57,638 nt of DNA from Minisyncoccota bacterium (GTDB lineage Bacteria; Patescibacteriota; Minisyncoccia; Phycocordibacterales; CAJBRS01), in NCBI GenBank assembly GCA_017881075.1, contig JADGRH010000001.1, forward strand, positions 1-57,638, written 5' to 3'. Positions 39,794 through 57,429 of the stretch are shown piece by piece. Below the pieces are notes generated by a model. That model was not told where the DNA came from and searched no databases. It was given only the letters and a program-made list of their open reading frames with translations. Position numbers and translations under genes: made by a program. How positions within the stretch are numbered: the stretch's first letter is position 1; every line of letters begins with the position of its first letter.

Positions 39794-39816
39794 TTAACGA
39801 AGTCTGACTTCGTTAA
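39794..39816. repeat. REP-like palindrome, family A (TTAACGAAGTC-T-GACTTCGTTAA)
   Basis: Perfect 11-bp arms. It starts immediately after the stop codon of 39473..39793. Confidence 0.85.
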
Positions 39817-39870
39817 TCTGCTACAATCGTAGATGAAATTTCTATAAAAATCTCTTAAAGATGATTTCAT

Positions 39871-39887
39871 CAGAGGTCTGACCTCTG
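39871..39887. repeat. REP-like palindrome, family B (CAGAGGTC-T-GACCTCTG)
   Basis: Perfect 8-bp arms. Same core as the copies in gatB. Confidence 0.8.
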
Positions 39888-39888
39888 C

Positions 39889-39911
39889 ATGTCAACGTGG
39901 CACGTTGACAT
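39889..39911. repeat. Palindrome ATGTCAACGTG-G-CACGTTGACAT
   Basis: Perfect 11-bp arms, adjacent to the REP copies. No second copy was noticed in the window. Confidence 0.6.
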
Positions 39912-39936
39912 TGGAGTTTGGTCTCTAAAGTCCCTG

Positions 39937-39945
39937 TGGTATAAT
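39937..39945 (+). promoter_or_regulatory. Extended -10 box TGgTATAAT, 7 nt upstream of the ATG at 39953
   Basis: TGGTATAAT, then tatctaa, then ATG. Confidence 0.45.
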
Positions 39946-39952
39946 TATCTAA

Positions 39953-41962
39953 ATGAGAAAATACTTACTTTTCGCCATTCTATTCTCCTTATTTTTCGTC
40001 CCGCTTCTCTCTTTGGCACGACCTACACTACCGGTACAGAATAATTCTTCTTTTTCCCCTCCATCTTCTTGTATAAATATAACCGTTAACCTTTCTCAAG
40101 GATCAACGGATTCATCCACCGGAGGAGCAGTATCGTTACTTCAAATATTTTTAAATACTAAAGGCTATTTAAGCTCCCAACCTACCGGATATTTTGGTTC
40201 GATGACGACACAAGCGGTAGTCAATTTTCAAAAAGCCAATGGTCTTTCGGCTGTTGGAACCGTTGGTCCTCAGACTCGCGATAAGATCAATGCTCTTACT
40301 TGCGGTTCAATGAATACAAGCTCGGCGCAATCAAGTACGAACTCTGCTCAATCAACTAACAACATAAATTATAATACAACGGATTTGGGAAAGTGGATAG
40401 ATGCAAGATCACAAGGAAGTTATTACGCTGCTTTCCCGTCCTTTTTAAGGGATGATTCCGGCAAGTTAAATATTTCTTATTGTTCTTCTGGTGAAGATTT
40501 TAATCCAAATTTTGCTCCGGACTGGAGAAATACCACCGCCTATACGACCGATAAAGTAAGATACCAATCTTCTACGAATAATGGAGCAACGTGGTCTAGC
40601 GCTAGCACCCTCGTCAGTGCTTACAGACAAAATAACCAAGATAATTTAGATCAGGGCGCTTGCACCAATTCCGCCATCTATTATCAGGGTAGATATTATC
40701 TTTATTTTGAATCTTACCAACACGATACCGGCATGATCGCTATTTTTGTCGCTCGTTCAGATAGTCTTGCTGGGCCATACGATATCTATACTTACGATGG
40801 GTGGCAGAGGAATCCAACCCAATCGGTTTGGAAACCAGTTTTAAGGCCAAGCGTTTACGATATACCTGGTGGAATCGCTTGGGCGGCACAGTTTAAAAAC
40901 TTAAATAACGGAATAGGAAATGTCTATTGGGGTGCTGGTATTCCAAAAATCACTCAAAAAGATGGCAGATTATATCTATATTATGTTGATACCACTTATT
41001 TCCTGATATGGGCTGATTCGCAAGGTGTCCATCAGTATCCCGGAGTAGGAAGTCCTCCTTATACCGGGATTCCATATCAATTAGTATCAATAAGTAATGA
41101 CCCCGTTAACTTTAGTAATGTCTATGCCAACAAAATGGTTGAGCAGGGGGGATCTGATATATGGTCAGAACTGCGCCCTAAATATTTCCCCGCAACTCAA
41201 GAATTCATGGCCTTCTATTTTAAGAGAGCAGACAACAACAATGAGCTTGTTTCCAGAAGCTCTAGCAATGGAATTGCGTGGAGCGGGGAAAAGGTATCAT
41301 CATTAAATTTTACTCAAAATGATCCTCTAGACAGTGGCGGTCAAGGCAATATTGTTACAATAAACCCCTCAATAACCATACTCTCCAATAAAGACGGTCA
41401 AGCAAGTATGCCTGATCTATATGGAATTTTTTGGAAGAGGTTTATATTACCCAATGCTCCTGTTGGATGGAGAGATACTCCAAATTACAAATGGTACTAC
41501 GGCGGCTATGATATTTACGGAATAAAAATTTCTCCGATTTTAAATCCTCCATCCCCTCCACCTCCACCATCCGTAACTACACCCCTAGTCATTAATCTTA
41601 CCAATCGTTATTCAAGTGCAGATAGCGCCAGCGGCTTCTACGTTTGCGGTACCGGATTTAAAGATAATATTTATGCCAGTGTCATTTGGACTAAGCCGGA
41701 TGGTACTGTTATGAATGGTCCAAATGATGTGATCTGGTATACCAAAAACAGTCAAGCTCCATTTTCGATAGCTTCTTATATTGATTCTGCATCATCTGTA
41801 AAAAAACAATGCGCTTTTATTTCTCTTGATGCCGCACTTCAATCTTCAACATTTAGTGGCGGATGGAAAGCTTCTTTCACTCTATATAATGCAGACAACA
41901 ATCTTCACACAACTGTAGATATAACGCCTCCAGGATTGACGAATAATCCTAAGAATACCTAA
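39953..41962 (+). CDS. Secreted protein with an N-terminal peptidoglycan-binding domain and a large beta-rich (propeller/GH-like) domain
   Basis: Signal peptide. LLQIFLNTKGYL..GYFGSMTTQAVVNFQKANGLSAVGTVGPQTRDKI is a PG_binding_1 pattern. A PPSPPPPPS linker is present. Confidence 0.5.
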   Translation: MRKYLLFAILFSLFFVPLLSLARPTLPVQNNSSFSPPSSCINITVNLSQGSTDSSTGGAVSLLQIFLNTKGYLSSQPTGYFGSMTTQAVVNFQKANGLSAVGTVGPQTRDKINALTCGSMNTSSAQSSTNSAQSTNNINYNTTDLGKWIDARSQGSYYAAFPSFLRDDSGKLNISYCSSGEDFNPNFAPDWRNTTAYTTDKVRYQSSTNNGATWSSASTLVSAYRQNNQDNLDQGACTNSAIYYQGRYYLYFESYQHDTGMIAIFVARSDSLAGPYDIYTYDGWQRNPTQSVWKPVLRPSVYDIPGGIAWAAQFKNLNNGIGNVYWGAGIPKITQKDGRLYLYYVDTTYFLIWADSQGVHQYPGVGSPPYTGIPYQLVSISNDPVNFSNVYANKMVEQGGSDIWSELRPKYFPATQEFMAFYFKRADNNNELVSRSSSNGIAWSGEKVSSLNFTQNDPLDSGGQGNIVTINPSITILSNKDGQASMPDLYGIFWKRFILPNAPVGWRDTPNYKWYYGGYDIYGIKISPILNPPSPPPPPSVTTPLVINLTNRYSSADSASGFYVCGTGFKDNIYASVIWTKPDGTVMNGPNDVIWYTKNSQAPFSIASYIDSASSVKKQCAFISLDAALQSSTFSGGWKASFTLYNADNNLHTTVDITPPGLTNNPKNT

Positions 41963-42684
41963 AGCCCCGCTAATTGAATAGCAACATAAAGCACGGCAAC
42001 GCCGAGGACGGTCATTAATGTGGTCCATTTTGTGGGGTGGGCGTGATGGCTTTCGGGCAGGAGGTCGCTCGCACCTATATATAGAAAGAAACCGGTGAAG
42101 ATAGCGAGGACTATTCCCAGGGTTGATTCGGAAAGAGTGAAGAGGAAAGTGGATACAACTCCGAGTACTGGAGCTAACGCATCGGCGAGTAGCCATTTGA
42201 AGGCTTCACTACGGCCGCCGTGGTTTTTGGAGATGAGGCCAACGGTGTTGATGCCATCGGAGAAATCGTGGACTAAAACGGCGACGGCGACCACTGCTCC
42301 AACGGCGGCAGAGACCTGGAAGGCGACGCCAATGGCGACGCCGTCAAGAAAACTATGAAATGAAAGACTGCCTGCCCCTAATCTGCCGCGTCTGTTTTCA
42401 ATATGCGGATGAGAGTCATCATCCGTATGGCTGTGCATAATAATCATTCGGTCTAATATCAAATAAACCACAAAACCCAGAGCCATCATGGATGTAATAA
42501 ATGAGCCTGAGTAATTGACGCTACCGAGATTAATTGCTTCTGGCATCAAGTCAAAGAAGGCTACTCCAATAACAGCTCCGGCACTGAATCCTAAGATGAG
42601 ATGAAGACGATCCTGAAAACGCAAGGCGAATAACCCCCCGAGTAATGTAGCGACAAAAGCGGCGATAGCAATTAGAATAATCAT
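41959..42684 (-). CDS. ZIP-family metal (Zn/Fe) transporter, ZupT-like
   Basis: Polytopic membrane protein with a His-rich loop (HSHTDDDSHPH) and HDFSDG/HSFLDG motifs. Confidence 0.7.
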   Translation of the reverse strand: MIILIAIAAFVATLLGGLFALRFQDRLHLILGFSAGAVIGVAFFDLMPEAINLGSVNYSGSFITSMMALGFVVYLILDRMIIMHSHTDDDSHPHIENRRGRLGAGSLSFHSFLDGVAIGVAFQVSAAVGAVVAVAVLVHDFSDGINTVGLISKNHGGRSEAFKWLLADALAPVLGVVSTFLFTLSESTLGIVLAIFTGFFLYIGASDLLPESHHAHPTKWTTLMTVLGVAVLYVAIQLAGL

Positions 42685-42767
42685 AATAATTTAAGTATAA
42701 GTAAAATCAATTTGTAAATCAAAGTTCTTTCCTATAAGCTAAAAGCTATAACCTAATAGCTATTCAT

Positions 42768-43508
42768 ATGCCAATTGTTGAAGTAAAAAATCTGGTGAAG
42801 AAATTCGGCGACACTACCGCCGTTGATAATCTCACTTTTGAGATTGAAGAGGGTAAGATCACCGGTCTTCTTGGGCCAAATGGAGCGGGGAAGACCACTA
42901 CCATTCAGATGCTTCTTGATCTGATTATTCCCACTTCCGGTAGCATTCGTATTTTTGGCAAAGAGATGAAAAATTCTCGAGAAGAAATCTTGAGTAAGAT
43001 AAATTTTTCTTCCCCTTATGTTTCACTGCCGACTAATCTAAAAGTTTGGGAAAATCTGACCACTTTTGCTCGACTTTACGGAGTTAAAAATATTGAAAAA
43101 AAGATTGATGAACTAACAACCTTTTTTGATATCAAAGATTTTCTACCAAAGATGACTTCGGCACTTTCTACCGGCCAGCTCACTCGGCTTAATTTGACCA
43201 AGGCCCTACTTAATGACCCGGCCCTGCTTTTTCTGGATGAACCGACCGCTTCACTTGATCCCGATATTGCCGATCGGACCAGACAGCTCTTGAAACGTAT
43301 TCAAAAAGAAAGAAATGTCACTATTCTTTACACTACCCACAATATGGCCGAAGTAGAGGAGATATGTGATCGGGCCATCTTTATTCATCATGGAAAAATG
43401 AAGGACGATGGAGCACCTGCCGATCTGATTAAAAAATATGGTCGGGAAGATTTAAACGATGTTTTTTTAATGATTGCCAGAGGAGAAGCCGAGAATGTAA
43501 AATCATAG
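42768..43508 (+). CDS. ABC transporter ATP-binding protein (ABC-2 type)
   Basis: GLLGPNGAGKTTT, LSTGQLTRL, LLFLDEPTASLD. Confidence 0.85.
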   Translation: MPIVEVKNLVKKFGDTTAVDNLTFEIEEGKITGLLGPNGAGKTTTIQMLLDLIIPTSGSIRIFGKEMKNSREEILSKINFSSPYVSLPTNLKVWENLTTFARLYGVKNIEKKIDELTTFFDIKDFLPKMTSALSTGQLTRLNLTKALLNDPALLFLDEPTASLDPDIADRTRQLLKRIQKERNVTILYTTHNMAEVEEICDRAIFIHHGKMKDDGAPADLIKKYGREDLNDVFLMIARGEAENVKS

Positions 43509-43510
43509 AT

Positions 43511-44302
43511 ATGAACTTCAATCGCATCAGTGCCTTAATGATGAGACATCTTTATCTCTACCAGCGGAGCTTGCCGAGGCTGATGGATCTATTTTTTTGG
43601 CCGATTTTGGAAATTTTGGTATGGGGATTTTTAAGCGTCTATTTAGAAAAAATGAATTTGGGAGGATTAAATATTGTCAGCTTGCTTCTGGGGGCGATTA
43701 TCTTCTGGGATTTATTAAGTCAATCTCAAAAGGCGGTCTCTTTTGCTTTTATGGAAGAAGTTTGGGAAAAGAATTTCTTAAATATTTTTGTTACCCCTCT
43801 CAAAGTAAGTGAGTTCCTTTTTTCCACTTTTTTTCTGGGACTGATAAGAATCGTTTTAGTTGGAATTATTTTGGGCCTTTTCTCTTTTCTTTTGTATCAT
43901 TTTAATATATTTCAATTTGGACTTTATACTGTTCCTTTTATCATCAACCTACTTCTTTTTGGTTGGACTCTCGGTATCTTTACCACGGCCATCATTTTCC
44001 GTTTTGGTAGCTCCGCCCAGATCTTTGCCTACAGTTTAATATTCTTAATTCAGCCGTTTAGTGCCGTTTTTTATCCAATTTCAGCTTTGCCCCAAGCCCT
44101 GCAATTTGTTGCCTATCTTTTCCCGTCATCCTATGTTTTTGAGGGTATGAGGGCAATCATTCACAACGGGGTCTTTCCACTCAATTATTTCCTACTCTCT
44201 CTTGGACTGAATTTAGTCTATATGGCAGTAATTTTTTTCTTTTTCTATAAGGCTTTCTATTGGGTTAGAGTTCACGGCCGGTTAATGAAGATCGAGGGAT
44301 AA
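43511..44302 (+). CDS. ABC-2 type transporter permease
   Basis: Six-TM protein immediately downstream of the ATPase. Confidence 0.7.
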   Translation: MNFNRISALMMRHLYLYQRSLPRLMDLFFWPILEILVWGFLSVYLEKMNLGGLNIVSLLLGAIIFWDLLSQSQKAVSFAFMEEVWEKNFLNIFVTPLKVSEFLFSTFFLGLIRIVLVGIILGLFSFLLYHFNIFQFGLYTVPFIINLLLFGWTLGIFTTAIIFRFGSSAQIFAYSLIFLIQPFSAVFYPISALPQALQFVAYLFPSSYVFEGMRAIIHNGVFPLNYFLLSLGLNLVYMAVIFFFFYKAFYWVRVHGRLMKIEG

Positions 44303-44359
44303 TATTTGTGATAGAATATCATTGAAGTTAGAAAGCTTTATTAATTAATTTTATAAACC

Positions 44360-44509
44360 ATGCTTACAACAATCGCAGTCATATTGGTTGTTCTTTGGCT
44401 AATCGGGTGGGTAGCCCTGCCTGCTATAGGAGGTTTTATTCACATTCTGCTAGTCATAGCTATCATTGTTATCTTGGTCCGGATTATTCGGGGAAAGTCG
44501 GTGGTTTAA
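44360..44509 (+). CDS. Small membrane protein (49 aa), lmo0937-like family
   Basis: Own translation: MLTTIAVILVVLWLIGWVALPAIGGFIHILLVIAIIVILVRIIRGKSVV. It is followed by a strong terminator and was missed by the 60-aa cutoff. Confidence 0.55.
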   Translation: MLTTIAVILVVLWLIGWVALPAIGGFIHILLVIAIIVILVRIIRGKSVV

Positions 44510-44520
44510 AGAGTTTTGAA

Positions 44521-44556
44521 AACAGCCCCGCGGCCTTTGGCCGCGGGGCTGTTTTC
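44521..44556 (+). terminator. Rho-independent terminator
   Basis: AACAGCCCCGCGGCC-ttt-GGCCGCGGGGCTGTT followed by TTC. Confidence 0.7.
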
Positions 44557-44574
44557 TATAGTAAAATAGAATGG

Positions 44575-45399
44575 ATGAAAAGCACCCCCCACATTGCCCA
44601 TCGTCACCGTCACTCCGCCATTAGCTATCCAATATCTCTTAGCCAGAGGCTCTATACTTTTTTTGTAGGGCCTCTTTTAGTTGTTCTGATTCTATTTATA
44701 GTGGTCAAGTTTTTCTCCGGCTCGTCATTTGCCATAGTGGAGAAATTTTCTTTGGATGATCTGGTTAAGGCTCTTCTTGCCACATCCCTGCGTTTACTCA
44801 TTGCCTACATTTTGGCTCTTGTTGTTGCCGTACCACTTGCTCTTTTCGCCACTAGTAGTCGCTCTGCCGAAACTATTTTCCTGCCGGTCTTTGATATTCT
44901 GGAATCCGTTCCGGCTCTAGCCTTCTTTCCAATTCTTATTGTCTTTTTTGTCCGGCTGGATTTCTTGAATGGGGCCGCTATTTTTATTCTTTTTCTTTCC
45001 ATGCTTTGGAATATTGTTTTTACCTTAGTTGGCGGACTGAAAATCATTCCGAAAGATATTAAAGATGCCGCTCAAATCTTCGGCATCCGTGGTTGGAATT
45101 ATTTTCGCAAGGTTCTTCTTCCGGCTATTTTTCCGGAGCTTGTCACCGGCTCTATCTTAGCCGTAGCCCAGGGTTGGAACATCACTATTATTGCGGAAGT
45201 TCTCCATGTCTATATTCCTGGCGGCAACGCAAGCCATGACCTTTTTGGTATCGGCAGTATCTTGGTACAGGCCGCCTCCGGCGGCAAGACCGATCTTTTT
45301 ATTGTGGCCCTGGTTTTAATGGTTTTGATGATCGCCTTACTCAATTTCTTCCTTTGGCAAAAATTACTTCGTTATGCCGAACGATTCAAATTTGAATGA
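44575..45399 (+). CDS. ABC transporter permease (NitT/TauT-type, BPD_transp_1)
   Basis: The start is placed at the Met of MKSTPH, downstream of the terminator at 44521-44556. The track ORF from 44395 reads through the small gene and the terminator. Permease motifs: LLIAYILALVVAVPLAL..., SVPALAFFPI. Confidence 0.65.
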   Translation: MKSTPHIAHRHRHSAISYPISLSQRLYTFFVGPLLVVLILFIVVKFFSGSSFAIVEKFSLDDLVKALLATSLRLLIAYILALVVAVPLALFATSSRSAETIFLPVFDILESVPALAFFPILIVFFVRLDFLNGAAIFILFLSMLWNIVFTLVGGLKIIPKDIKDAAQIFGIRGWNYFRKVLLPAIFPELVTGSILAVAQGWNITIIAEVLHVYIPGGNASHDLFGIGSILVQAASGGKTDLFIVALVLMVLMIALLNFFLWQKLLRYAERFKFE

Positions 45400-46111
45400 A
45401 ATGAATAATATTATTGAATTAAAAAATGTTAGCAAGCTCTACAACCAGCCTCATCAGCTTGCTCTGGAGAACATTAACCTCTCAATCAGAGAAGGGGAGT
45501 TTATCTGTCTCATTGGTCCGTCGGGCGGTGGTAAGACAACACTACTTAAGATTATTGCTGGATTGGAAAAAGAAACGGCTGGAGAAGTAGTAAAACCGGA
45601 GAATGTCTCAATGGCTTTTCAGGGAGGAGCGCTCTTTCCATGGCTCACCGTTTATGAAAACGTGGCCCTAGGCCTGCAGGAGCAAGATCTTTCGGATTCC
45701 AAGATAAAGACCGAAGTTTTGAAATATTTAGAGATGATGAAGATGACTGACTTTGCTCTCAAATATCCGGCCGAACTTTCCGGCGGTCAGCGTCAAAGGG
45801 TTGGCATTGCCCGAGCATTAGCAGTGGAGCCAAGCGTTCTTCTTATGGATGAACCTTTCTCTGCTCTCGATGCTAAAACTACAGCTGAACTTCACGACGA
45901 TCTTATAAAAATCTGGAGAGACACCAAAAGAACTATCATTATGGTATCGCATCTCATCGAAGAAGCCGTCTCCCTCGCCGAGCGGGTGGTTCTGATAAAA
46001 AATTCCACCATCGCCGAGATCTTCAACATTGAGCTCCCATATCCCCGTCGCGAGCAGGGCTTGGCTTTCCATCACGACGTCATGAAGATCCGCCGCGAAT
46101 TCTTCAAATAA
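45374..46111 (+). CDS. ABC transporter ATP-binding protein (nitrate/sulfonate/taurine type)
   Basis: LIGPSGGGKTTLL, LSGGQRQRVGIARAL, LLMDEPFSALD. An alternative start at 45401 (MNNII) removes the overlap. Confidence 0.85.
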   Translation: MPNDSNLNEMNNIIELKNVSKLYNQPHQLALENINLSIREGEFICLIGPSGGGKTTLLKIIAGLEKETAGEVVKPENVSMAFQGGALFPWLTVYENVALGLQEQDLSDSKIKTEVLKYLEMMKMTDFALKYPAELSGGQRQRVGIARALAVEPSVLLMDEPFSALDAKTTAELHDDLIKIWRDTKRTIIMVSHLIEEAVSLAERVVLIKNSTIAEIFNIELPYPRREQGLAFHHDVMKIRREFFK

Positions 46112-46127
46112 CATCGAATTATCGTCG

Positions 46128-46154
46128 AATTATCGAAGTCTGACTTCAATAATT
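46128..46154. repeat. REP-like palindrome, family A (AATTATCGAAGTC-T-GACTTCAATAATT, 1 mismatch)
   Basis: Upstream flank of the Y1 transposase gene. Confidence 0.75.
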
Positions 46155-46207
46155 TATTTTTTCTTTATAAATTTTTTAGCGAAAATTCATCTCTGTTCAT
46201 TATTATT

Positions 46208-46234
46208 AAATATCGAAGTCAGACTTCGATATTT
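46208..46234. repeat. REP-like palindrome, family A (AAATATCGAAGTC-A-GACTTCGATATTT)
   Basis: Perfect 13-bp arms. It abuts the ATG at 46235. Confidence 0.85.
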
Positions 46235-46921
46235 ATGAGAAAAGAGCCATATACAGTTGGATCATACGTTCATGTAGTAAAAAGAGGACAGCGTAAGCAA
46301 CCGATTACCAAAGATATTCAAGATCAATGGCGTTTTTTAAAAATACTCAGACATTTTAATGATCAGTTTTCCTCTCCTAATTGGTATGGAGATTTAAATC
46401 CTAAAGAGCCATTCAAAAGAATTTCTCAATGGTCGCCTCAGCGACCCTTGGTGGAGATTCTAGCCTTTTGCCTAATGCCTAACCATTTTCACCTTCTTCT
46501 TAGAGAAATTCGAGAAGGAGGTATTTCAAAGTTCATGCAGAAAATAGGGACAGGTATGAGTAATTATTATAATATGAAATATGAAGAGGTTGGTAGTTTA
46601 TTTCAAGGAGCATTCAAGTCAAGAACAATTAACGAAGATATTTACCTTCGTTATGTCGCAGTCTATATTATGGTAAAGAATCCGTTAGAATTGTATCCAG
46701 GAGGTTTATCTAAAGCTATAGAAGATTTTGATTCCGCTTATGATTGGGCGGTCAATTACGAATTCGCTAGCCTGAAGGACTTCATAGGGAAAAGACACTA
46801 TTCCATTATCAGTCCGGGAATATTAAAAAATCTTTTCAAAGACGAAGCAGAATTTAAAGCCTTTGCTAAAGACTGTCTTGAAGGGAGAAATATGGATTTT
46901 AACGAAGTCAGACTTCGTTAA
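46235..46921 (+). CDS. IS200/IS605-type Y1 (HUH) transposase, REP-associated tyrosine transposase (RAYT)-like
   Basis: HUH motif CLMPNHFHLLL and the tyrosine region LRYVAVYIMVKNP, in a 228-aa protein flanked on both sides by the dispersed palindromes. Confidence 0.7.
   Translation: MRKEPYTVGSYVHVVKRGQRKQPITKDIQDQWRFLKILRHFNDQFSSPNWYGDLNPKEPFKRISQWSPQRPLVEILAFCLMPNHFHLLLREIREGGISKFMQKIGTGMSNYYNMKYEEVGSLFQGAFKSRTINEDIYLRYVAVYIMVKNPLELYPGGLSKAIEDFDSAYDWAVNYEFASLKDFIGKRHYSIISPGILKNLFKDEAEFKAFAKDCLEGRNMDFNEVRLR
46899..46921. repeat. REP-like palindrome, family A (TTAACGAAGTC-A-GACTTCGTTAA)
   Basis: It overlaps the last 7 codons and the stop codon of the transposase ORF (FNEVRLR*). Confidence 0.85.
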
Positions 46922-46951
46922 TTCGGGAATTCGTGTTATGATTTTAAATAT

Positions 46952-48067
46952 ATGAAAGACTCAAAGAAGGGCTTTGTTGGAGTGGCTTTATTAATAATCC
47001 TTGGTTTATTGGTTGTTGGCGGGGGAGCGTATTATTTTGGTACTCGTCATAGCGCAGAAGCGCCCGCGCAGGTTTCTACCGGTGATCAATCTGGCAGTGT
47101 TCCGAAATTGAATGATTATAGTAATCCTTCTACTAATACGACAGTGAACACTCCTAATACAACGTCAGGGAACGTTTCAAACACCACAAATTGGAAAACT
47201 TATACCAATGCTCAATATGGTTTTCAATTTCAATATTCAAGTGAAATTATTTTTCCATCTCCTACTTCCAACCCTCGGAATGTTTTTGCTCTTCAGTCAA
47301 AAAATTCAATTAGCAGTCCAATTTTGGGTCTATATATTTCATTACTTAAAGATTCAGGAGAGAATACATTACAAAATGATAAAGACACTTTAACCAATGG
47401 ACGAACAGGGATACAGATAAAAAATCTTACAATCGGAGGAAACCCTGGATTTATGGCCAGCCATATCGATAAAGAAGTAAGCGATGTCGGAGGACATATT
47501 ACCTACACCGCAAATTCTATAGTTGAGACCTTTAAAGATGGTAATATTTATGCGTTTGAATGTAGTCAGAATGGTACAGATACGAGTGAATGTAATCAGA
47601 CTATTTCCACCTTTAAATTCACCCAAGTAGCTCAAAATACAGATTGGAAAACTTATTCAGATTTCGGATTCTCATTTAATTATCCAAACAATATAGTACT
47701 AGCCCCTACTGGAGCAAGATTCGCCGTCGATTTCTTTTTAGACAATCCGTCAGATGCAAATATGGTTACCTTCTCGGCAGAAGATCCGGTGGCTACATGT
47801 GATGACATGGATAATGCAATAGGACCCAATGGAGTCCATAATTATAAAGGAGAAATGAAAATAATTAATGGTGTGAGTTTTCACAAAGCTGAATCATCTG
47901 AAGGATTCGCTGGAGGATCTGCACATTCTATTGATTACTACACTGTTCATAATAATTTATGTTTTGATTTGCGCTTTTCACATGCATCGTATACATCTAC
48001 TCTATCCGAATCAACTGCAATTTCAATGTTTGAAAACATTGTTGCAACCTTTAAACTCAAAAACTAA
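46952..48067 (+). CDS. Membrane-anchored or secreted hypothetical protein (371 aa)
   Basis: N-terminal TM/signal segment and a Ser/Thr/Asn-rich linker. No recognised domain. Confidence 0.5.
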   Translation: MKDSKKGFVGVALLIILGLLVVGGGAYYFGTRHSAEAPAQVSTGDQSGSVPKLNDYSNPSTNTTVNTPNTTSGNVSNTTNWKTYTNAQYGFQFQYSSEIIFPSPTSNPRNVFALQSKNSISSPILGLYISLLKDSGENTLQNDKDTLTNGRTGIQIKNLTIGGNPGFMASHIDKEVSDVGGHITYTANSIVETFKDGNIYAFECSQNGTDTSECNQTISTFKFTQVAQNTDWKTYSDFGFSFNYPNNIVLAPTGARFAVDFFLDNPSDANMVTFSAEDPVATCDDMDNAIGPNGVHNYKGEMKIINGVSFHKAESSEGFAGGSAHSIDYYTVHNNLCFDLRFSHASYTSTLSESTAISMFENIVATFKLKN

Positions 48068-48285
48068 TGGACCAAGAACTTCAAAAATTGCAGGCGAAGA
48101 TTGATGAGCAGAAGGTGCAGATTGATCAAATGTATCAGTCGGTGGAAAAGTTGCGCAAGTATTTTAAATGGACGATGATTATTACTATTATCGTTGTGGT
48201 TTTGCCACTGATCGGTCTCGTTTTTGCCCTACCGACTTTTCTTAATAATTATGTTGGTCAGGCCAATTCTCTCAGTGGTTTTTAA
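48067..48285 (+). CDS. Small tail-anchored membrane protein (72 aa)
   Basis: Coiled-coil N-terminus and one TM helix. Its start overlaps the upstream stop. Confidence 0.45.
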   Translation: MDQELQKLQAKIDEQKVQIDQMYQSVEKLRKYFKWTMIITIIVVVLPLIGLVFALPTFLNNYVGQANSLSGF

Positions 48286-48288
48286 TTC

Positions 48289-49572
48289 ATGAAGTTAGCA
48301 CCGAAAAAGCAGGTTTATTGGTATACCAAAAAGACTCCCACAATAAAAAAACTGGAGAATAATGCCGCCGCCGACGTGGTCATTGTCGGCGGGGGAATGG
48401 CCGGCCTCTCGGCCGGCCAGAAACTAAGCGAGGCCGGTCTAAAAGTCATTATTCTTGAATGTACTTTTTGTGGTGGGGGAGCGAGCGGCAAAAGCTCCGG
48501 CTTTCTCACTCCGGATTCGGAGCTCCAACTCGCCGATCTTTTGGAGAAATACGGCCCCGAAGGGGCCGTCAAAATGCGTCAATTTGTCGATGTTGGCCTT
48601 AATCTCATTCGGGATAACATTAAAAAATATAATATTGACTGCGATTACCAAATTCAGGATTCCCTCTTTGTCGCCAACTCAAGGAAGTCTTTTAGGAAAG
48701 TGGAAGTTGAACATCAGGCCAGAGTGAAACTCGGCTACGAAAGCAAGCTTTATTCGGAGGAAAAGTTGCCGGAAATTTTAGGAGGTAATAAATATTTCGG
48801 CGGTGTGCGATATCCCGGTAGCTTTGGCCTCAACTCTTATTTATATTGCCAGGCAATGAAAGAAATATTGGAAAAAAATGGTGTGGAGATTTACGAAGAA
48901 AGTTCGGTTTCGGAAATTATGGAAGGGAAGGTGAAAGCGGGAGACTTTGTTGTTTCAGCAAAATACATTATTGTCGCTACTGATCACTTTTTATCTAACT
49001 TCAATATTAGAAAGAGAGATGTTTATCATGCTCAAACATTTTTGGCTGTTTCCGCTCCACTTGAAGATTCAAAGTTTCGAAAGATCTTTCCGAACGACGT
49101 AACTATGGTCTGGGACACCGATCTCATCTATCAATATTTTCGTCCGATCGAAGGAAACAGATTACTCTTCGGTGCCGCTAATCTTCTTTACACTTATAAA
49201 CCACATGAAAAGAAAAATTTTGCAGATGTTATCCAAAAGATGCGGCGATATCTGAAAAATAAATTTGATCTCGACGATATTGTCTTTGAATATTCTTGGC
49301 CGGGCATGATTGGCGTTGCCAAGGATTTTGTACCGATTGCTGGGATTGATCCAAAAATGAAAAATGTTTTATATATGAGCGCCGCCACCGGTCTCCCCTG
49401 GGCGGCGGCCCTCGGCGACTATCTTGCCGGCAAGATCACTAACGGCCGGCAAGACTATGATCAATTTTTCTCGCCCGAACGACATTATCCCGTCAGTAAT
49501 AATATTCAAGTCGTTATCTCCAAGCCAGTTGCTTTTGCCATCAGTCATGGCATTATTAAGTACTTTAAATAA
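48289..49572 (+). CDS. FAD-dependent oxidoreductase (DAO family)
   Basis: VVIVGGGMAGLSAGQKL dinucleotide-binding motif, 427 aa. Confidence 0.7.
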   Translation: MKLAPKKQVYWYTKKTPTIKKLENNAAADVVIVGGGMAGLSAGQKLSEAGLKVIILECTFCGGGASGKSSGFLTPDSELQLADLLEKYGPEGAVKMRQFVDVGLNLIRDNIKKYNIDCDYQIQDSLFVANSRKSFRKVEVEHQARVKLGYESKLYSEEKLPEILGGNKYFGGVRYPGSFGLNSYLYCQAMKEILEKNGVEIYEESSVSEIMEGKVKAGDFVVSAKYIIVATDHFLSNFNIRKRDVYHAQTFLAVSAPLEDSKFRKIFPNDVTMVWDTDLIYQYFRPIEGNRLLFGAANLLYTYKPHEKKNFADVIQKMRRYLKNKFDLDDIVFEYSWPGMIGVAKDFVPIAGIDPKMKNVLYMSAATGLPWAAALGDYLAGKITNGRQDYDQFFSPERHYPVSNNIQVVISKPVAFAISHGIIKYFK

Positions 49573-49574
49573 AC

Positions 49575-50141
49575 ATGGACAAACTATTTATTCCAATTTT
49601 GCTTGGTACGGCTAGAGACGAGAGAGAATCGGAAAAGGTGGCGAAATTTGTTTTTGATCAATTTTCAAAAAATACCAAAATAAAAACCGAACTGATTGAT
49701 ATCAGAAATTTTGCTTTGTCCGAGACCACTCCTTCCTGGGTGGAAAGTCCGATCATAGCAGAATGGAGAGAAACTCTCACTAAGGCGGATGGATTGATAA
49801 TCGTTGCTCCGGAATACAATCATGGCTATCCAGGCGAGTTGAAATTACTGATCGATTCAGCCCTGAAAGAATATGAAAAAAAGCCCGTTGCCATCTGTGG
49901 CGTTTCGAGTAGCGCCATTGGTGGTGCCCGAATGATGCAGCACCTGATTCCCACTCTAAGCAAGCTGGGGATGATACCAATCAAAGATGCCGCTTACTTT
50001 TCTGTTGTCAAAGAGTTATTTAACCAAAAGGGTAAAATAAAAAACAAACAGAAATGGCAGAAAATTCTGAAAAAGATCTTCGACGAGCTTCTCTGGTATG
50101 CTAAAGTCCTAAAGGAAGGAAGAATTAAATATCCAAAATAA
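49575..50141 (+). CDS. NAD(P)H-dependent FMN reductase-like flavoprotein
   Basis: LIIVAPEYNHGYPGELKLLID motif. Confidence 0.7.
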   Translation: MDKLFIPILLGTARDERESEKVAKFVFDQFSKNTKIKTELIDIRNFALSETTPSWVESPIIAEWRETLTKADGLIIVAPEYNHGYPGELKLLIDSALKEYEKKPVAICGVSSSAIGGARMMQHLIPTLSKLGMIPIKDAAYFSVVKELFNQKGKIKNKQKWQKILKKIFDELLWYAKVLKEGRIKYPK

Positions 50142-50142
50142 A

Positions 50143-51039
50143 ATGCCTAAAGTAAAAATCATTACTCACGACGGTAATTTTCATCCGGATGAGCTTTTTG
50201 CTGTAGCTACTCTGCTTCTAGTACTTGACCTAAGTAATGATGAATATGAAATTATTCGGACGCGCGATCCAGAAGCGATTAAGACGGGAGATTATATTTT
50301 AGATGTTGGGGGTATTTATGATCCTGCCAACAATAGATTTGATCATCATCAAATCGGGAGAGCGGGGGAAAGACCGAACGGTATTCCTTATGCCACTTTT
50401 GGGCTAGTGTGGAAAAAGTTTGGAGAGAAGATTTGTGGAGGTAAAGAAATAGCAGATAGAGTGGATGAAAAAATGGTGCAATCGATTGACGCTGACGATA
50501 ATGGAGTGGCCACATTCCAACCTTTATCAAAAGACATCACACCTTACCAATTTGAATCGGCTATCTCGTCCTTCATTCCAACTTGGCGAGAAAAAGATCA
50601 AAACATTGACGCGGCTTTTTTAAAGGTGCTCGTTCTGGTGGAAGAAGTATTGGCTAGAGAGATCACTCGGGCAAAGCATTATTTTGAAGGCAAGAGTCTT
50701 ATATTGGAGGCTTATGAAAAAGCGGAAGATAAAAGAATTATTATTCTTAAAGACGCTTATTCTTGGAAAGAGGTCTTAAGTAAATTCCCAGAACCGTTAT
50801 TTGTAGTTGGCAATGATGGTCGCCGGTCGGAATGGGCCGTAGCCAGTGTCAGGGAAGAAGGGGCATCATTTGTAAGTCGTAAACTTTTACCGGAAAGCTG
50901 GGCCGGAAAACGCGATGACCAATTAGCAAAGATTACGGGTGTAAAAGAGGCGTTTTTTTGCCATAACGGTCGTCATCTTGCCATGGCCAAAACTTTTGAT
51001 GGGGCTATGGCTATGGCCAAACTGGCTTTAGAATCTTAA
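50143..51039 (+). CDS. MYG1/UPF0160 family metal-dependent hydrolase
   Basis: ITHDGNFHPDELFAVATL and FDHHQ motifs. Confidence 0.7.
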   Translation: MPKVKIITHDGNFHPDELFAVATLLLVLDLSNDEYEIIRTRDPEAIKTGDYILDVGGIYDPANNRFDHHQIGRAGERPNGIPYATFGLVWKKFGEKICGGKEIADRVDEKMVQSIDADDNGVATFQPLSKDITPYQFESAISSFIPTWREKDQNIDAAFLKVLVLVEEVLAREITRAKHYFEGKSLILEAYEKAEDKRIIILKDAYSWKEVLSKFPEPLFVVGNDGRRSEWAVASVREEGASFVSRKLLPESWAGKRDDQLAKITGVKEAFFCHNGRHLAMAKTFDGAMAMAKLALES

Positions 51040-51075
51040 TCAGACCTATAAGCTAACACCTAACACCTATCCTTT

Positions 51076-52086
51076 ATGCCATTCGTTGACGAATTAAAAA
51101 TTCATATTAGGTCAGGGAAAGGCGGGGACGGGGTGGTGCGCTGGCTGCATGAGAAAGGAAAGGAATTTATGGGTCCGGCTGGAGGAAATGGCGGCCGTGG
51201 TGGAAATGTTTCGGTAGAAGCGGTCAGTGATTTGAATATTTTATTTCACTATCGACATAAAAAAGAATTCAAAGCTGAAGATGGAGGAAACGGCATGAGT
51301 AGAAGTATGCATGGTAAGGATGGTGCAGATCTCATAATCAATGTGCCAATAGGCAGTGTTATTACTAATTTAGATACGGATAAGAAAATTTCTCTGTCAG
51401 AGAAAGGAGAGAAAGCGACGTTACTTGTCGGCGGCCATGGCGGGTTGGGTAACGAGTACTTTAAAGGTTCTAAGAATGTTCGGCCGAAAGAATCAACACT
51501 TGGTAAGGTCGGCGAAGAAGCAGATTTTTTTATTGAAGTGGAACTGGTTGTGGCGGCTGGTCTTGTCGGACTTCCGAACGCAGGCAAATCAAGCTTGTTG
51601 AATGCCATGACTGCGGCAGAAGCGAGAGTGGGGGAATATCAATTCACAACACTTGAACCAAATCTCGGTGCTCTCTACGAATTCGTTTTAGCCGACATCC
51701 CCGGCCTCATCGGAGGGGCATCGCTCGGAAAAGGTTTGGGTCATAAATTTCTACGACACGTTAAACGCACCAAAATTCTTTTTCACTGTATTTCTTTAGA
51801 GGAGGATGTATTAAATGCTTACCAGACTATTCGGAATGAAATAGAGCTTTTTGATCCAGAATTAGGAAAAAGGAAGGAAGTTATTATTCTCACTAAAACG
51901 GATCTTGTTTCCAAAGAAATTTTAGAGCAAGCTAGAAAAACTCTTTCCAATAAAAATTCCAAAATTTATGATGTGTCGGTTTTTGATGACCAATCGGTGG
52001 AAACATTAAAAGAAAAGATCCTCAAAATTCTGCGCTCGCCCACAGCTATAAAACAGACCGCTCCGGGGCGCTTGCCCAAGTCTTAG
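51076..52086 (+). CDS. obg: GTPase Obg/CgtA
   Basis: FVDELKIHIRSGKGGDG Obg fold, G1 GLPNAGKSSLL, G3 DIPGLI, G4 TKTD. Confidence 0.9.
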   Translation: MPFVDELKIHIRSGKGGDGVVRWLHEKGKEFMGPAGGNGGRGGNVSVEAVSDLNILFHYRHKKEFKAEDGGNGMSRSMHGKDGADLIINVPIGSVITNLDTDKKISLSEKGEKATLLVGGHGGLGNEYFKGSKNVRPKESTLGKVGEEADFFIEVELVVAAGLVGLPNAGKSSLLNAMTAAEARVGEYQFTTLEPNLGALYEFVLADIPGLIGGASLGKGLGHKFLRHVKRTKILFHCISLEEDVLNAYQTIRNEIELFDPELGKRKEVIILTKTDLVSKEILEQARKTLSNKNSKIYDVSVFDDQSVETLKEKILKILRSPTAIKQTAPGRLPKS

Positions 52087-52120
52087 TCTGTTTTATAGCT
52101 GTGGGCTTCGCTAGAATTTT
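52024..52120. repeat. Long imperfect inverted repeat spanning the obg 3' end and stop codon
   Basis: Inner arms CCCACAGCTATAAAACAGAC (52039-52058) and GTCTGTTTTATAGCTGTGGG (52086-52105) are perfect 20-mers. Outer arms are AAAATTCT/AGAATTTT. The loop is 27 nt. Confidence 0.8.
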
Positions 52121-52142
52121 GATTAAGTGATATATTTTTCAT

Positions 52143-53687
52143 ATGGAACCTAAATACTACCCGACAATTGGCTTGGAAATTCATGCGGAATTGGCGACTA
52201 AGACCAAGATGTTCTGCGACTCAAAAAATGACCCGAACGAGAAAGAACCAAATGTAAATATCTGTCCCATTTGCCTGGGGCATCCAGGCACTCTTCCCGT
52301 TATCAATAAAGAGGCGGTGAAGCATGTCATTAAGGTGGGTATTGCCGTGGGTGGAGAGATTGCCGATTTTACTGAATTTGATCGTAAGAATTATTTCTAC
52401 CCCGATATTCCAAAGAGCTATCAGATCTCCCAATACAAATATCCTCTAGTTAAGGGGGGCACCCTTGATGGAGTAAAACTGACACGCATTCACCTTGAAG
52501 AAGACACGGCTACCTCAAAACATGACCAAGGAGATTTCTCTCTCATCGATTTCAATCGGGCCGGAGTGCCACTAATGGAATTGGTGACCGAGCCGGTCAT
52601 TCACAGCGCTGAAGAAGCCTCAAGTTTTGCTAAGGAGCTTCAATTACTTTTGCAATATCTTGGAGTGGCCGAAGCTAACATGGAGAAAGGAGAGATGAGG
52701 GTGGAAGCGAATATATCAATAAGCCCAATATCGAAGTCTGACTTCGATATTGGGAAGAAATATCGAAGTCAGACTTCGATATTGGGAACAAAAGTAGAAG
52801 TAAAAAATCTAAACTCATTTAAATCTGTAGAAAAAGCTATTGCATATGAGATTAACCGAATGGCAGAAATCTTAGAGAAAGGAGAGAAAGTAATTCAGGA
52901 AACGCGTGGCTGGGACGAAATCAAACAGAAAACTTTTTCTCAAAGGGAGAAAGAAGAATCGCATGACTATCGTTATTTTCCGGATCCCGATCTTCCGAAG
53001 CTTTACATCAGCGAGGTGCCAGAATTTAAAAAAGAAGTTTTAGAAAAAGAGATTCCTGAATTACCGTCTCAAAAAAGGGAACGTTATAAAAAAGATTTTG
53101 GACTGAAGAATGAAGATGTAGAAATGTATGTTAGGGGAAAGGAGTGGGGAAAATTTTTTGAAGAAGTAGTTTCAAAACTTGCAGAGGTCAGACCTCTGCA
53201 AGAGCAAGAGAAAAGCAGAGGTCTGACCTCTGCAAGTTTGGTGGTGCTGGCTTCAAATTATGTTACTTCTGATCTGGTGGGAATTTCTAAGAATTCAGCA
53301 GAGAGAGGCCTGCCCGCCGCGCCGGCTAGGCAGGCGAGTGAAATTTTCGGAAAAATCTCGGCCGAAAATTTCGCCGAACTGATCCGGATGATCGGCGCCC
53401 GAGCGATCTCTTCTCGGGCGGCCAAAGATATTCTGGCTATTATGCATAAGGAAGGCGGCGATCCCCAAAAGATCGCCGCCTCCAAGAATCTCCTTCAAAA
53501 GCAAGATGCGGCCGAGTTAAAGATCATTGTTCAAAATATCATTGCCTCTAGCCCTCAAGTAGTAGCTGATTACAAAGGAGGCAAAGAAACCGCCCTTCAG
53601 TTTTTTGTTGGGCAGGCCATGAAAGAAACCAAAGGGGCGGCTAATCCAGAGAAATTGAGAGAGATTTTGCTAGAGCTGCTACAGTAA
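52143..53687 (+). CDS. gatB: Asp-tRNA(Asn)/Glu-tRNA(Gln) amidotransferase subunit B, carrying in-frame repeat insertions
   Basis: IGLEIHAEL, CPICLGHPGTLPV, FDRKNYFYPDIPK, RIHLEEDT, NRAGVPLMELVTEP, KNLNSF, and a C-terminal YqeY-like domain. It is 514 aa, longer than the usual ~475-480 as I recall. Confidence 0.9.
   Translation: MEPKYYPTIGLEIHAELATKTKMFCDSKNDPNEKEPNVNICPICLGHPGTLPVINKEAVKHVIKVGIAVGGEIADFTEFDRKNYFYPDIPKSYQISQYKYPLVKGGTLDGVKLTRIHLEEDTATSKHDQGDFSLIDFNRAGVPLMELVTEPVIHSAEEASSFAKELQLLLQYLGVAEANMEKGEMRVEANISISPISKSDFDIGKKYRSQTSILGTKVEVKNLNSFKSVEKAIAYEINRMAEILEKGEKVIQETRGWDEIKQKTFSQREKEESHDYRYFPDPDLPKLYISEVPEFKKEVLEKEIPELPSQKRERYKKDFGLKNEDVEMYVRGKEWGKFFEEVVSKLAEVRPLQEQEKSRGLTSASLVVLASNYVTSDLVGISKNSAERGLPAAPARQASEIFGKISAENFAELIRMIGARAISSRAAKDILAIMHKEGGDPQKIAASKNLLQKQDAAELKIIVQNIIASSPQVVADYKGGKETALQFFVGQAMKETKGAANPEKLREILLELLQ
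52724..52783. repeat. REP family A doublet inside gatB
   Basis: CCCAATATCGAAGTC-T-GACTTCGATATTGGG (52724-52754) and AATATCGAAGTC-A-GACTTCGATATT (52759-52783). Translated as PISKSDFDIGKKYRSQTSI. Confidence 0.9.
53178..53233. repeat. REP family B doublet inside gatB
   Basis: CTTGCAGAGGTC-A-GACCTCTGCAAG (53178-53202) and GCAGAGGTC-T-GACCTCTGC (53215-53233). Translated as LAEVRPLQEQEKSRGLTSA. Confidence 0.9.
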
Positions 53688-56110: not shown

Positions 56111-57429
56111 TGAAAACAATTTGGAAAATTATCGCTGTGGTTATTTTTATTTTAATGGCGGTTGCCTCGCCTGCGGCGAGGCAACCCTCTCCGCTCTACG
56201 CTCAATCTGCCGATGCCGGAAACATAGTTCATCTTCAAGTTAATAACTGCAACAACAACGGAATCTGTGAACCGCAGTTCGGCGAAAATTATTTAGGCTG
56301 TCCACTTGATTGCCCGGGCAATCCTCCACCACCTCCTCCTCCAGTGCACCATCCTTCTGCCAATCATTCTCTTGATCCTTACAACATCAGCGTCACCGTT
56401 AATGAAGATTTAACTGCTCTAATAACATGGAACACTTATGATGCTTCTGTCGGATATTTATCATGGGGTAGGACTGCAGAAACTGCAGACGGCACAATTG
56501 CCGAAATCAATTTTGGAATCGAACACGCAATTCAACTCACTAGTCTACAGCCAAACAGTCAATATTTTTTCAAGATTGAGACAAGGTCGGAAGACGGTCG
56601 GCATGGTCAATCAAGCGTTTACTCTTTTATCACTCCTTCATTAATCTCTTCACCGCAGAATATCACCGACTTCCATTTTCAATTAGTGGGACAGGATATT
56701 TTGCTTCTCTGGCAAAATCCCAACGATCCTAATTTTCAAAAGACAATAATTCTCCGGTCAGACATTTTTTATCCGAATGATCCTCAAGGGCCCGGCTTAA
56801 TATATGAAGGGCAGGGGACCACCACTCTCGACCAAAGAGTAAAAGTCTTTCATGATTATTATTACACTGCTTTCGCTGAAGATATTTATGGGCATTACTC
56901 TTCCGGTGTCACCTTGCATGTACGATTAATTCCTTATACTGAAAAGTTGGCTTCATCAACTTCTTCTGTTCTTCCCACCATTATTCAATTATCCGATATT
57001 GGTATTGAACAAAATAGACATCAAGTTTATTTTTCTAACGGCATAGCAGAGATAGAGAAAAATATTCCAATCCGTTTCTTTATCGGAGAAAGTGCTTTGC
57101 CAACAGGCACCAATGAAATTATCTTGAATATCGAAAATGAATTTGCTCCAGGATCATTTACCTCATCTCTTATGAGAACTACTGTTAATGATCATGTTTA
57201 TGAAGCCACTGTCCCGGCCTTCACCTCTCTCGGTCAATATCGATTTCTAATCAGTGCTTTGAATAAAAAAAATCAGACTATTGGTCAGGCTGGGGGGATA
57301 TTGGAAGTAATAAAGCAAAAGTCCTTTTGCTGGTATTGCTACTTGTGGGAAATTTACAAGGCGGATTATTATGTGGCCTATTTCTTCGGTTTTTTGGACT
57401 ATCTCGGCTGGTTAGTTATCCACATTTAA
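56110..57429 (+). CDS. Secreted protein with a Pro-rich linker and an FN3-like domain; C-terminal hydrophobic tail
   Basis: Signal peptide, PPPPPPPVHHP, an FN3-like ISVTVNEDLTALITWNTYDASVGYLSWG...LQPNSQYFFKIE, and a C-terminal aromatic/hydrophobic segment. Confidence 0.5.
   Translation: MKTIWKIIAVVIFILMAVASPAARQPSPLYAQSADAGNIVHLQVNNCNNNGICEPQFGENYLGCPLDCPGNPPPPPPPVHHPSANHSLDPYNISVTVNEDLTALITWNTYDASVGYLSWGRTAETADGTIAEINFGIEHAIQLTSLQPNSQYFFKIETRSEDGRHGQSSVYSFITPSLISSPQNITDFHFQLVGQDILLLWQNPNDPNFQKTIILRSDIFYPNDPQGPGLIYEGQGTTTLDQRVKVFHDYYYTAFAEDIYGHYSSGVTLHVRLIPYTEKLASSTSSVLPTIIQLSDIGIEQNRHQVYFSNGIAEIEKNIPIRFFIGESALPTGTNEIILNIENEFAPGSFTSSLMRTTVNDHVYEATVPAFTSLGQYRFLISALNKKNQTIGQAGGILEVIKQKSFCWYCYLWEIYKADYYVAYFFGFLDYLGWLVIHI

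Follow-up and report, generated by a model that had tools for sequence, protein, structure and literature searches.

Palindrome doublets inserted in frame in the gatB gene of a Patescibacteria genome: probable REP-type mobile elements with a linked RAYT-type transposase gene

The stretch of DNA considered here, referred to as the window, comprises 57,638 nucleotides of contig JADGRH010000001.1 and derives from a member of the Patescibacteria, which are ultrasmall bacteria. Towards its end lies gatB, the product of which is recognised as GatB by its catalytic and tail domains (Pfam GatB_N, 348 bits, and GatB_Yqey, 115 bits), by its best sequence matches in the PDB, which are GatB chains (3AL0_B and 3H0L_B, E ~1e-110), by its invariant residues and by its modelled fold; a search of the window for a second gatB returned this one locus only. 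Two places in the gene hold pairs of short inverted palindromes that are read in frame, and 6 kb upstream lies a gene for a Y1/HUH tyrosine transposase resembling the REP-associated tyrosine transposases (RAYTs), which partner the repeats named repetitive extragenic palindromes (REPs). The palindromes in gatB are probably REP-type mobile elements that were inserted in frame and are translated. The coordinates of these features are collected in Table 1.

Palindrome doublets had been reported by the initial annotation at 52724-52783 and 53178-53233, two copies of a family A at the first site and two of a family B at the second, and inspection of the sequence and of the open reading frame (ORF) list confirms their position, families, central bases and quoted translations. 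At site 1 the first copy reads CCCAATATCGAAGTC-T-GACTTCGATATTGGG (52724-52754), with the same core as the copy that adjoins the transposase gene, and is followed by AAGA and then by the second copy, AATATCGAAGTC-A-GACTTCGATATT (52759-52783); taken together they form a doublet of 63 nt (52724-52786) whose 28-nt arms are 100% complementary across a 7-nt spacer (52724-52751 / 52759-52786). At site 2 the copies read CTTGCAGAGGTC-A-GACCTCTGCAAG (53178-53202) and GCAGAGGTC-T-GACCTCTGC (53215-53233), in a doublet of 65 nt (53175-53239) with 25-nt arms and a 15-nt spacer (53175-53199 / 53215-53239). Orientation within the doublets is marked by the central base only. In 100 dinucleotide-preserving shuffles of the window either core was matched 0.00 times per shuffle, and the apex common to the two families, RGTCWGACY, occurs 10 times against 0.87 expected. 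Folded as RNA, the doublets reach -48.1 kcal/mol (z -13.7) at site 1 and -48.5 kcal/mol (z -8.8) at site 2; an Rfam scan gave no match in gatB or at the palindromes and found only rRNA and tRNAs. An independent Logan assembly of run SRR10489828 (L027, 7556 nt) is 100% identical to the window over 5573 nt, both doublets included, and encodes exactly the same GatB protein. The palindrome doublets in gatB are thus confirmed as real and non-random.

Table 1. Position of gatB, the transposase gene and the palindromic copies in the window.
Feature	Position	Strand	Basis or remark
gatB ORF, intact, 514 aa, four palindromes in frame	52143-53687	+	ORF list, Pfam, PDB
Site 1, family A copy 1, centre T, read P-I-S-K-S-D-F-D-I-G	52724-52754		15-nt arms, 100% complementary
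Site 1, family A copy 2, centre A, read Y-R-S-Q-T-S-I-L	52759-52786		palindrome scan
Site 2, family B copy 1, centre A, read A-E-V-R-P-L-Q	53175-53202		palindrome scan
Site 2, family B copy 2, centre T, read S-R-G-L-T-S-A	53215-53239		palindrome scan
RAYT-type Y1/HUH tyrosine transposase, 228 aa	46235-46921	+	Pfam Y1_Tnp, motifs; proposed mobilising enzyme
Family A palindrome adjoining the transposase gene on its upstream side	46207-46235		last base is the A of the transposase ATG
Degenerate family A copy, centre T, 3 mismatches	46130-46152		spaced pair with 46207-46235
Family A variant TTAACGAAGTCAGACTTCGTTAA	46899-46921		encodes last six transposase residues and stop codon
Intergenic family A variant ATTAACGAAGTCTGACTTCGTTAAT	39793-39817		core and palindrome search
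Intergenic family B copy, 1 mismatch	39870-39888		perfect palindrome 39871-39887

Whether the doublet segments are additions to GatB or ancestral parts of it can be judged from an alignment of 95 sequences (the window protein and 94 relatives), in which loop length was measured between invariant anchors. The nearest relatives are Patescibacteria (Parcubacteria/Paceibacteria) with GatB proteins of 474-486 aa, the closest orthologue, P0002, being 72% identical, and the protein collection searched held none more similar than this. Both segments are absent from P0002 and from most of the 94 relatives. In the window the site 1 loop counts 22 residues, where the modal length is 8 (a length of 7 or 8 being found in 85 of the 94 relatives), and the site 2 loop counts 31, where the mode is 17, an excess of 14 residues at each site and of 28 aa in total; codon-level alignment with the P0002 gene (L001) likewise gives +14 codons at both sites. 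The initial annotation had described an open frame of 514 aa, longer than a typical GatB, and this holds, the doublets accounting for all of the extra length except a few residues, which belong to a third region of natural variability. Its statement that the catalytic motifs are retained also stands, in that every residue invariant across the 95 sequences is kept in the window protein. In the 21-kb locus of the closest relative GTCWGAC does not occur, as compared with 11 occurrences in the window. The comparison supports the view, already taken in the initial annotation, that the doublet segments are insertions rather than ancestral GatB sequence, although the assumption that the whole block of 60-65 nt is the insert has to be given up: the net gain is only 42 nt per site, so that part of each palindromic block occupies ancestral codon positions.

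An AlphaFold2 model of the window GatB (mean pLDDT, the per-residue confidence score, 84.8) has GatB chains as its best structural matches, with TM scores of 0.72-0.84 normalised to the full-length targets. In the model site 1 (residues ~195-214) is a low-confidence loop (pLDDT ~51) between the strands 185-194 and 218-223, and site 2 (residues ~347-368, pLDDT 76-90) falls between the helices 333-348 and 363-387, so that both inserts are predicted to sit in connections between elements of secondary structure; the earlier proposal that they are tolerated as loops agrees with this model. The site 1 loop of other Paceibacteria GatB proteins (P0033, P0035, P0039, P0046, P0070, P0101 and P0111; loci L023-L026) holds unrelated inserts of 12-30 aa, the DNA of which is also hairpin-forming: L023, for example, has arms of 10 nt, and L024 contains a long inverted repeat rich in G-U. 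On the evidence of these alignments this loop is a recurrent landing place for inserts. A further GC-rich hairpin, GCCTGCC...GGCAGGC at 53308-53335 (gatB residues ~389-398, encoding GLPAAPARQA in a gene of 41% GC), was considered as a third insertion and rejected: its fold has a z of -1.7, 16 of 200 shuffles fold as well, and it lies in a naturally length-variable region.

The size of the inserted unit can be approached by removing it. When each of the four copies is shortened by one 21-nt palindrome, the loops that remain are ISIS-PIGKKL-GTK and KL-EQEKSLVV-LASNY, which have the length and character of those of the orthologues (consensus SPEKGKFGTK and xxDxKLIx). Scored against orthologue loop profiles, two 21-nt deletions reach 8.6 bits at site 1 and 19.1 bits at site 2, compared with 3.8 and 15.1 bits for the best single 42-nt deletion; the two-block model has more freedom than the one-block model, and two separate 21-nt events per site are only favoured over one 42-nt event. 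A lone family A copy in rsmI of L020 corresponds to exactly a seven-residue gap relative to E. coli RsmI. Insertion of a whole 63-65-nt doublet as the unit was rejected, as its removal would leave loops shorter than in any of the 94 orthologues. A unit of 21 nt never shifts the reading frame, which would explain the survival of many copies inside genes. When 30 family A and 31 family B copies were oriented and aligned, their flanks were symmetric and showed neither a target-site duplication nor a GTAG or CGTC tag, and the consensus of the outer stem proved lineage-specific (AA..TT in the window, AAG..CTT in groundwater genomes, TTGG..CCAA for family B).

The transposase encoded upstream of gatB matches Pfam PF01797 (Y1_Tnp) with 37.5 bits, above the cut-off of 23, and carries the motifs YVHVVKRG, MPNHFHLLL (HUH) and YLRYVAVYIMVKNP, its tyrosine motif being YxxxYIxxNP-like. 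More than 1700 homologues were found; those few that have an organism name are Patescibacteria, and one has been named 'REP element-mobilizing transposase RayT' by JGI. Many of them stand on contigs of about 1 kb, which is to be expected if flanking repeats break assemblies. The window holds nine palindromic copies of the two families where none is expected, including the family A variants TTAACGAAGTCWGACTTCGTTAA at 39793 and 46899, and all nine (39793-53239) lie within ~7 kb of the transposase gene, with none in the first 39 kb, a clustering that suggests local spread. A core match at 28016 has no palindrome around it and was treated as a chance occurrence. Both ends of the transposase gene have a family A palindrome within 0-45 nt, in the window as well as in L016, L018 and L021, whose transposases are ~50% identical to that of the window, and three further homologues (L090, L091 and L092, among them Kaiserbacteria and Yanofskybacteria contigs) are flanked by palindromes or inverted doublets of their own, in one case with the apex AGTCWGACT on different stems. 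A RAYT homologue in L032 (345-1133, minus strand) has a family B palindrome in frame in its N-terminal part (896-930, GRGLTSA) and a second family B copy ~220 nt upstream.

A Y1/HUH transposase gene flanked by dispersed hairpin repeats is the defining arrangement of REP-RAYT systems (PMC3116915, PMC3479197), so that the analogy with REP doublet-forming hairpins (REPINs), drawn by the initial annotation from the inverted organisation of the copies, now rests on more than shape and is strengthened by the transposase gene with its flanking family A palindromes. Inverted doublets of the REPIN type are formed at both gatB sites, by the pair upstream of the transposase gene, in recO of L074 and in the flank of L092. 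As in the systems of E. coli, Pseudomonas and Stenotrophomonas, the repeats are short, dispersed and hairpin-forming, and many are paired in inverted orientation so that a single long hairpin can form; the transposase gene, of which one copy was seen in the window, is flanked on both sides; and the stem sequences are lineage-specific. Unlike those systems, the window families have no GTAG at the hairpin foot, their stems are perfect and symmetric except for one central base, it is the apex (GTCWGAC) that is conserved and not the foot, the units are very short (~21 nt net gain), a high share of copies is intragenic, the host belongs to the Patescibacteria, and the transposase is divergent, longer (228 aa) and below the NCBIfam cut-off for RAYTs. 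The transposases of the IS200/IS605 insertion sequences (IS608, ISDra2) are of the same Y1 HUH fold family and likewise recognise subterminal hairpins in single-stranded DNA without target-site duplication (PMC3479197), but those elements are autonomous, their transposase gene moving with the ends, have imperfect, asymmetric hairpins with guide tetranucleotides and insert beside a specific tetra- or pentanucleotide. Assignment to the miniature inverted-repeat transposable elements was rejected: these have a non-palindromic body between terminal inverted repeats, with target-site duplication, whereas each unit here is palindromic throughout and its copies are not flanked by direct repeats.

In their behaviour within genes the window families have closer counterparts elsewhere. 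Rickettsia palindromic elements (RPEs) lie in frame in housekeeping genes at positions compatible with fold and function (PMC10969869), and the likeness to them is one of behaviour, not of membership: here too palindromic selfish DNA is found in frame, at permissive positions of housekeeping genes in a small-genome bacterium. The two are set apart, as far as published descriptions go, by the units of 19-31 nt, the lack of a CGTC tag and the Patescibacteria host, whereas RPE-1 spans ~100-150 bp and encodes a conserved peptide of 30-50 aa, RPE-4 and RPE-6 are short and CGTC-tagged, and RPEs are confined to Rickettsia and have no known dedicated transposase, in contrast to the RAYT-type gene linked here to units of ~21 nt. 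The precedent of RPEs was correctly cited by the initial annotation, which went too far in calling such insertions otherwise rare: intragenic GTAG/CGTC REPs are described from Proteobacteria, PVC bacteria, Cyanobacteria and Chloroflexi, for example in Opitutus, Thauera and Thioalkalivibrio, more than half of the inserts being dimers that encode 20-30 aa and some genes being hit twice (Di Nocera et al., 2013; PMC3733652). These REPs also occur as in-frame singles and dimers in known genes, including replication and repair genes, and some supply stop codons to flanking ORFs, but they are tagged and mostly intergenic, and the window families share neither tag nor sequence with them. Since both RPEs and intragenic GTAG/CGTC REPs have been described already, the behaviour itself is not new; what differs is the phylum, the tagless symmetric palindrome, the GTCWGAC apex, the gain of ~7 codons per copy and the high intragenic share. 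Full-text searches of the literature found nothing linking REP, REPIN or RAYT with Patescibacteria or the candidate phyla radiation (CPR).

The same palindromes recur well beyond the window. The exact family A 21-mer was found at 21 loci in about a dozen other species-level genomes, and the family B 19-mer at 62 metagenome loci, of which ~37 are low in GC and Patescibacteria-like. Copies are read in frame in genes confirmed by Pfam as uvrC-like, murD, holB (DNA polymerase III delta'), rsmI, grpE, an EEP nuclease gene, acs (acetyl-CoA synthetase), tsaD, topA (topoisomerase I) and recO, and are carried as well by gpsA, recognised by sequence and without a Pfam run, and by a RAYT gene. In these other genes family A copies encode peptides like those of GatB, VSKSDFD[IT] and YRSQTSI, and family B copies encode AEVRPL[QP], [GSC]RG[QL]TSA and LQRSDLC; AEVRPLQ is also encoded by the copies in acs, topA and a comEA-like gene on other Patescibacteria contigs, [GSC]RG[QL]TSA recurs in tsaD, gpsA, recO and a RAYT gene, and the doublet in recO of L074 resembles gatB site 2. 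About 40-50% of the sampled copies are intragenic: four of the nine in the window are within gatB and another runs over the stop codon of the transposase gene, and of 23 family A copies from other genomes ~10 fall in recognisable genes, so that the elements are not extragenic in the manner that gives REPs their name. The remaining ~25 of the 62 family B matches, on contigs of 68-73% GC, represent one conserved locus with a hairpin before a T-run and were excluded as a probably unrelated terminator. At this locus (L035, L037, L047 and ~22 more) the 19-mer is preceded by GCACGGGTCGTGCCGGG and followed by the T-run, an arrangement that looks like an intrinsic terminator; an Rfam scan of L047 found tRNAs only. 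At L013:3995-4040 and L002:3633-3700 the GTCWGAC apex stands on other stems (e.g. GTGAAGGTCAGACCTTCAC) adjoining family A copies, which suggests several stem families per genome.

Selection on the translated sequence predicts that, in the one frame in which a central T would give TGA, the coding strand should carry A. All six family B copies that lie in this frame within long open frames do so, GatB included, in a sample that is small and of which five are solid, L053 lying probably upstream of the real start codon. The same palindrome is found at the same position of the same gene across species in holB (L017/L019), the EEP nuclease gene (L006, L011, L014 and L022) and gpsA (L031, L060 and L065), with 150-nt flanks that are 53-75% identical and in one case 88%; these cases came from an exact-match search, which leaves decayed copies unsampled and inflates the apparent conservation. 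As for the central base of the copies in the EEP gene, one species has T and three have A.

It is probable, then, that the palindromes belong to a REP-RAYT system of this Patescibacteria genome, and from its linkage to them we infer that the enzyme encoded at 46235-46921 mobilises them. The elements would have been copied into gatB at two residue-tolerant places, a beta-strand loop of the catalytic cradle domain and a helix-helix connection of the helical domain, each copy adding ~21 nt, or seven codons, and keeping the frame, while copies placing an in-frame stop codon would be purged by selection; the outcome would be a functional GatB with two translated 14-residue decorations. The doublets can form, in DNA or RNA, two small hairpins or one long REPIN-like hairpin, and by analogy with IS200/IS605 elements and E. 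coli TnpA_REP (PMC3479197) recognition by the transposase would take place at the replication fork, where the hairpin is exposed in single-stranded DNA and would be cut and rejoined. Under two 21-nt insertions the empty site would read ...CCCAATTGGGAAGAAATTGGGAAC..., and translation through the inserts would give peptides spanning SKSDFDIGKKYR and AEVRPLQEQEK. We infer further that GatB carries the inserts as neutral passengers and draws no benefit from them.

Several observations weigh against this account. The window palindromes have neither the GTAG nor the CGTC tetranucleotide, GTAG being required for binding and cleavage by the E. coli RAYT (PMC3479197); the sole NCBIfam match of the transposase, REP_Tyr_transpos (NF047646), reaches 33 bits, below its cut-off of 80, and the protein has no sequence match in the PDB. 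Within the window, the transposase flanks carry copies of family A and none of family B. Perfect complementarity extends over 25-31 nt and so exceeds the net gain of 21 nt, an excess that simple insertion does not account for, and elsewhere the gain is smaller or not apparent, the tsaD copy (L030) adding only ~2 residues relative to T. maritima TsaD and the EEP nuclease copy occupying a segment of native-looking length. At both gatB sites opposed copies lie 11-15 nt apart, which is improbable under independent random insertion; the insertions may be coupled, new copies may be drawn to existing ones, or GatB may simply offer few insert-tolerant places. The identity of copies at orthologous sites, as far as the compared sequences go, implies maintenance, concerted evolution or repeated insertion. 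Finally, neither a transposition event nor an excision product nor an empty site in a near-identical strain was seen.

Other explanations account for parts of the same evidence. The hairpins may be retained for the sake of gatB, as structures that would, as the initial annotation suggested, affect mRNA stability or translation, or as sites for a GTCWGAC-binding protein, a proposal we consider unlikely and one that overlaps in part with mobility, as such hairpins may have arrived as mobile DNA. Their folds are very stable (~-48 kcal/mol each, z -8.8 to -13.7), a perfect helix of 25-28 bp being a potential substrate of RNase III, and the apex is conserved across families with differing stems, yet the closest GatB orthologues and most relatives manage without them and no RNA family in Rfam matches the region. 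Intergenic copies do stand at the ends of genes, positions for which an action of REPs on RNA is proposed (PMC3733652), but many unrelated genes contain the same sequence, which is found in each of the three frames and has no constant position; and the identical 21-mer or 19-mer at the same positions of holB, the EEP nuclease gene and gpsA despite diverged flanks, which a function would explain, was brought out by an exact-match search. It is less probable again that the palindromes arose in place, through template switching or quasi-palindrome correction that duplicated and inverted local sequence in tolerant loops. Such an origin would suit the complementarity that reaches positions aligned with ancestral codons, the variation of the outer stems between copies, the GC-rich perfect palindromes in coding sequence of normal length (in a Mur ligase gene at 6402-6429 and a glycosyltransferase gene at 14047-14071) and the unrelated hairpin-forming inserts in the same GatB loop of other lineages. 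Local duplication, however, cannot yield the same foreign sequence at unrelated sites, and cores of 19-23 nt are identical at other loci of the window, both transposase flanks included, and in more than a dozen other genomes. Occurrence of these cores at many unrelated sites is already suggested by the sequences to hand.

The explanation to which we give least credence is that the doublets are an artefact of assembly, or that gatB, either as a pseudogene in decay or because ribosomal bypass keeps it from being read through, has its function supplied elsewhere. Palindromes can break or confuse assemblers, and the Logan contig ends inside another large inverted repeat at 52066, but the two assemblies agree base for base. 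The search for a second gatB covered 57 kb of the genome only; the copy at hand, for its part, has an intact ORF in which every residue that is invariant among the 95 GatB sequences is present, the net length of either insert is divisible by three, with no stops, the orientation of the copies avoids TGA in the single risky frame, and the same elements are read through in many intact housekeeping genes in independent assemblies. Insertion of REP-type mobile elements is the reading we prefer to all of these.

The inverted repeat just mentioned occupies 52022-52122 (101 nt, with 37-nt arms that are 84% complementary and a 27-nt loop; -60 kcal/mol, z -9.5) and overlaps the 3' end of obg, to which it adds ~16 C-terminal residues (SPTAIKQTAPGRLPKS) and the stop codon; relatives terminate at ...KILRK. 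It stops 20 nt ahead of the gatB start codon, contig L027 starting in its loop (52066), is present as a single copy in the window and is unrelated to families A and B. GC-rich perfect palindromes with arms of 10-13 nt also lie within coding sequence at 6402-6429, where a native-looking LAGLLKEAGY of the Mur ligase is encoded, at 14047-14071, which encodes RAPALQAGA of a family 2 glycosyltransferase, in both cases with no obvious gain in length, and at 56160-56186, close to the N-terminus of a protein that looks secreted; arms as long as 12-13 nt are far more than chance would give. The window further contains the 3' part of a 16S rRNA gene (1-638, cut by the window start), one tRNA gene at 1135-1207 and four at 2322-2657.

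A broader proposition may be advanced tentatively, as one that is possible and that we stop short of favouring: that Patescibacteria carry phylum-wide, RAYT-linked, minimal symmetric palindromes of ~7 codons per copy, which are actively maintained, remaining identical at orthologous sites whose flanks have diverged to 55-70% identity, and which live mainly in the permissive loops of essential proteins, genomes of ~1 Mb being almost without intergenic space. To our knowledge, how RAYTs move REPs has never been shown directly, and a perfect hairpin of ~21 nt, conserved at its apex and lacking a guide tag, is a simple substrate on which to study such movement; if the phylum-wide proposition is true, it would offer a compact natural system for working this out. 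Repeats of this kind break assemblies and lengthen predicted proteins, and the peptides VSKSDFD, YRSQTSI, AEVRPLQ and xRG[QL]TSA are ones that annotators and structure predictors should recognise. It appears that selfish DNA persists in extremely compact genomes by living in essential genes. Patescibacteria proteins contain many insertions that lack an explanation; palindrome inserts may account for some of these and, were they to prove phylum-wide, would constitute a general and so far unrecognised source of lineage-specific insertions in CPR proteins.

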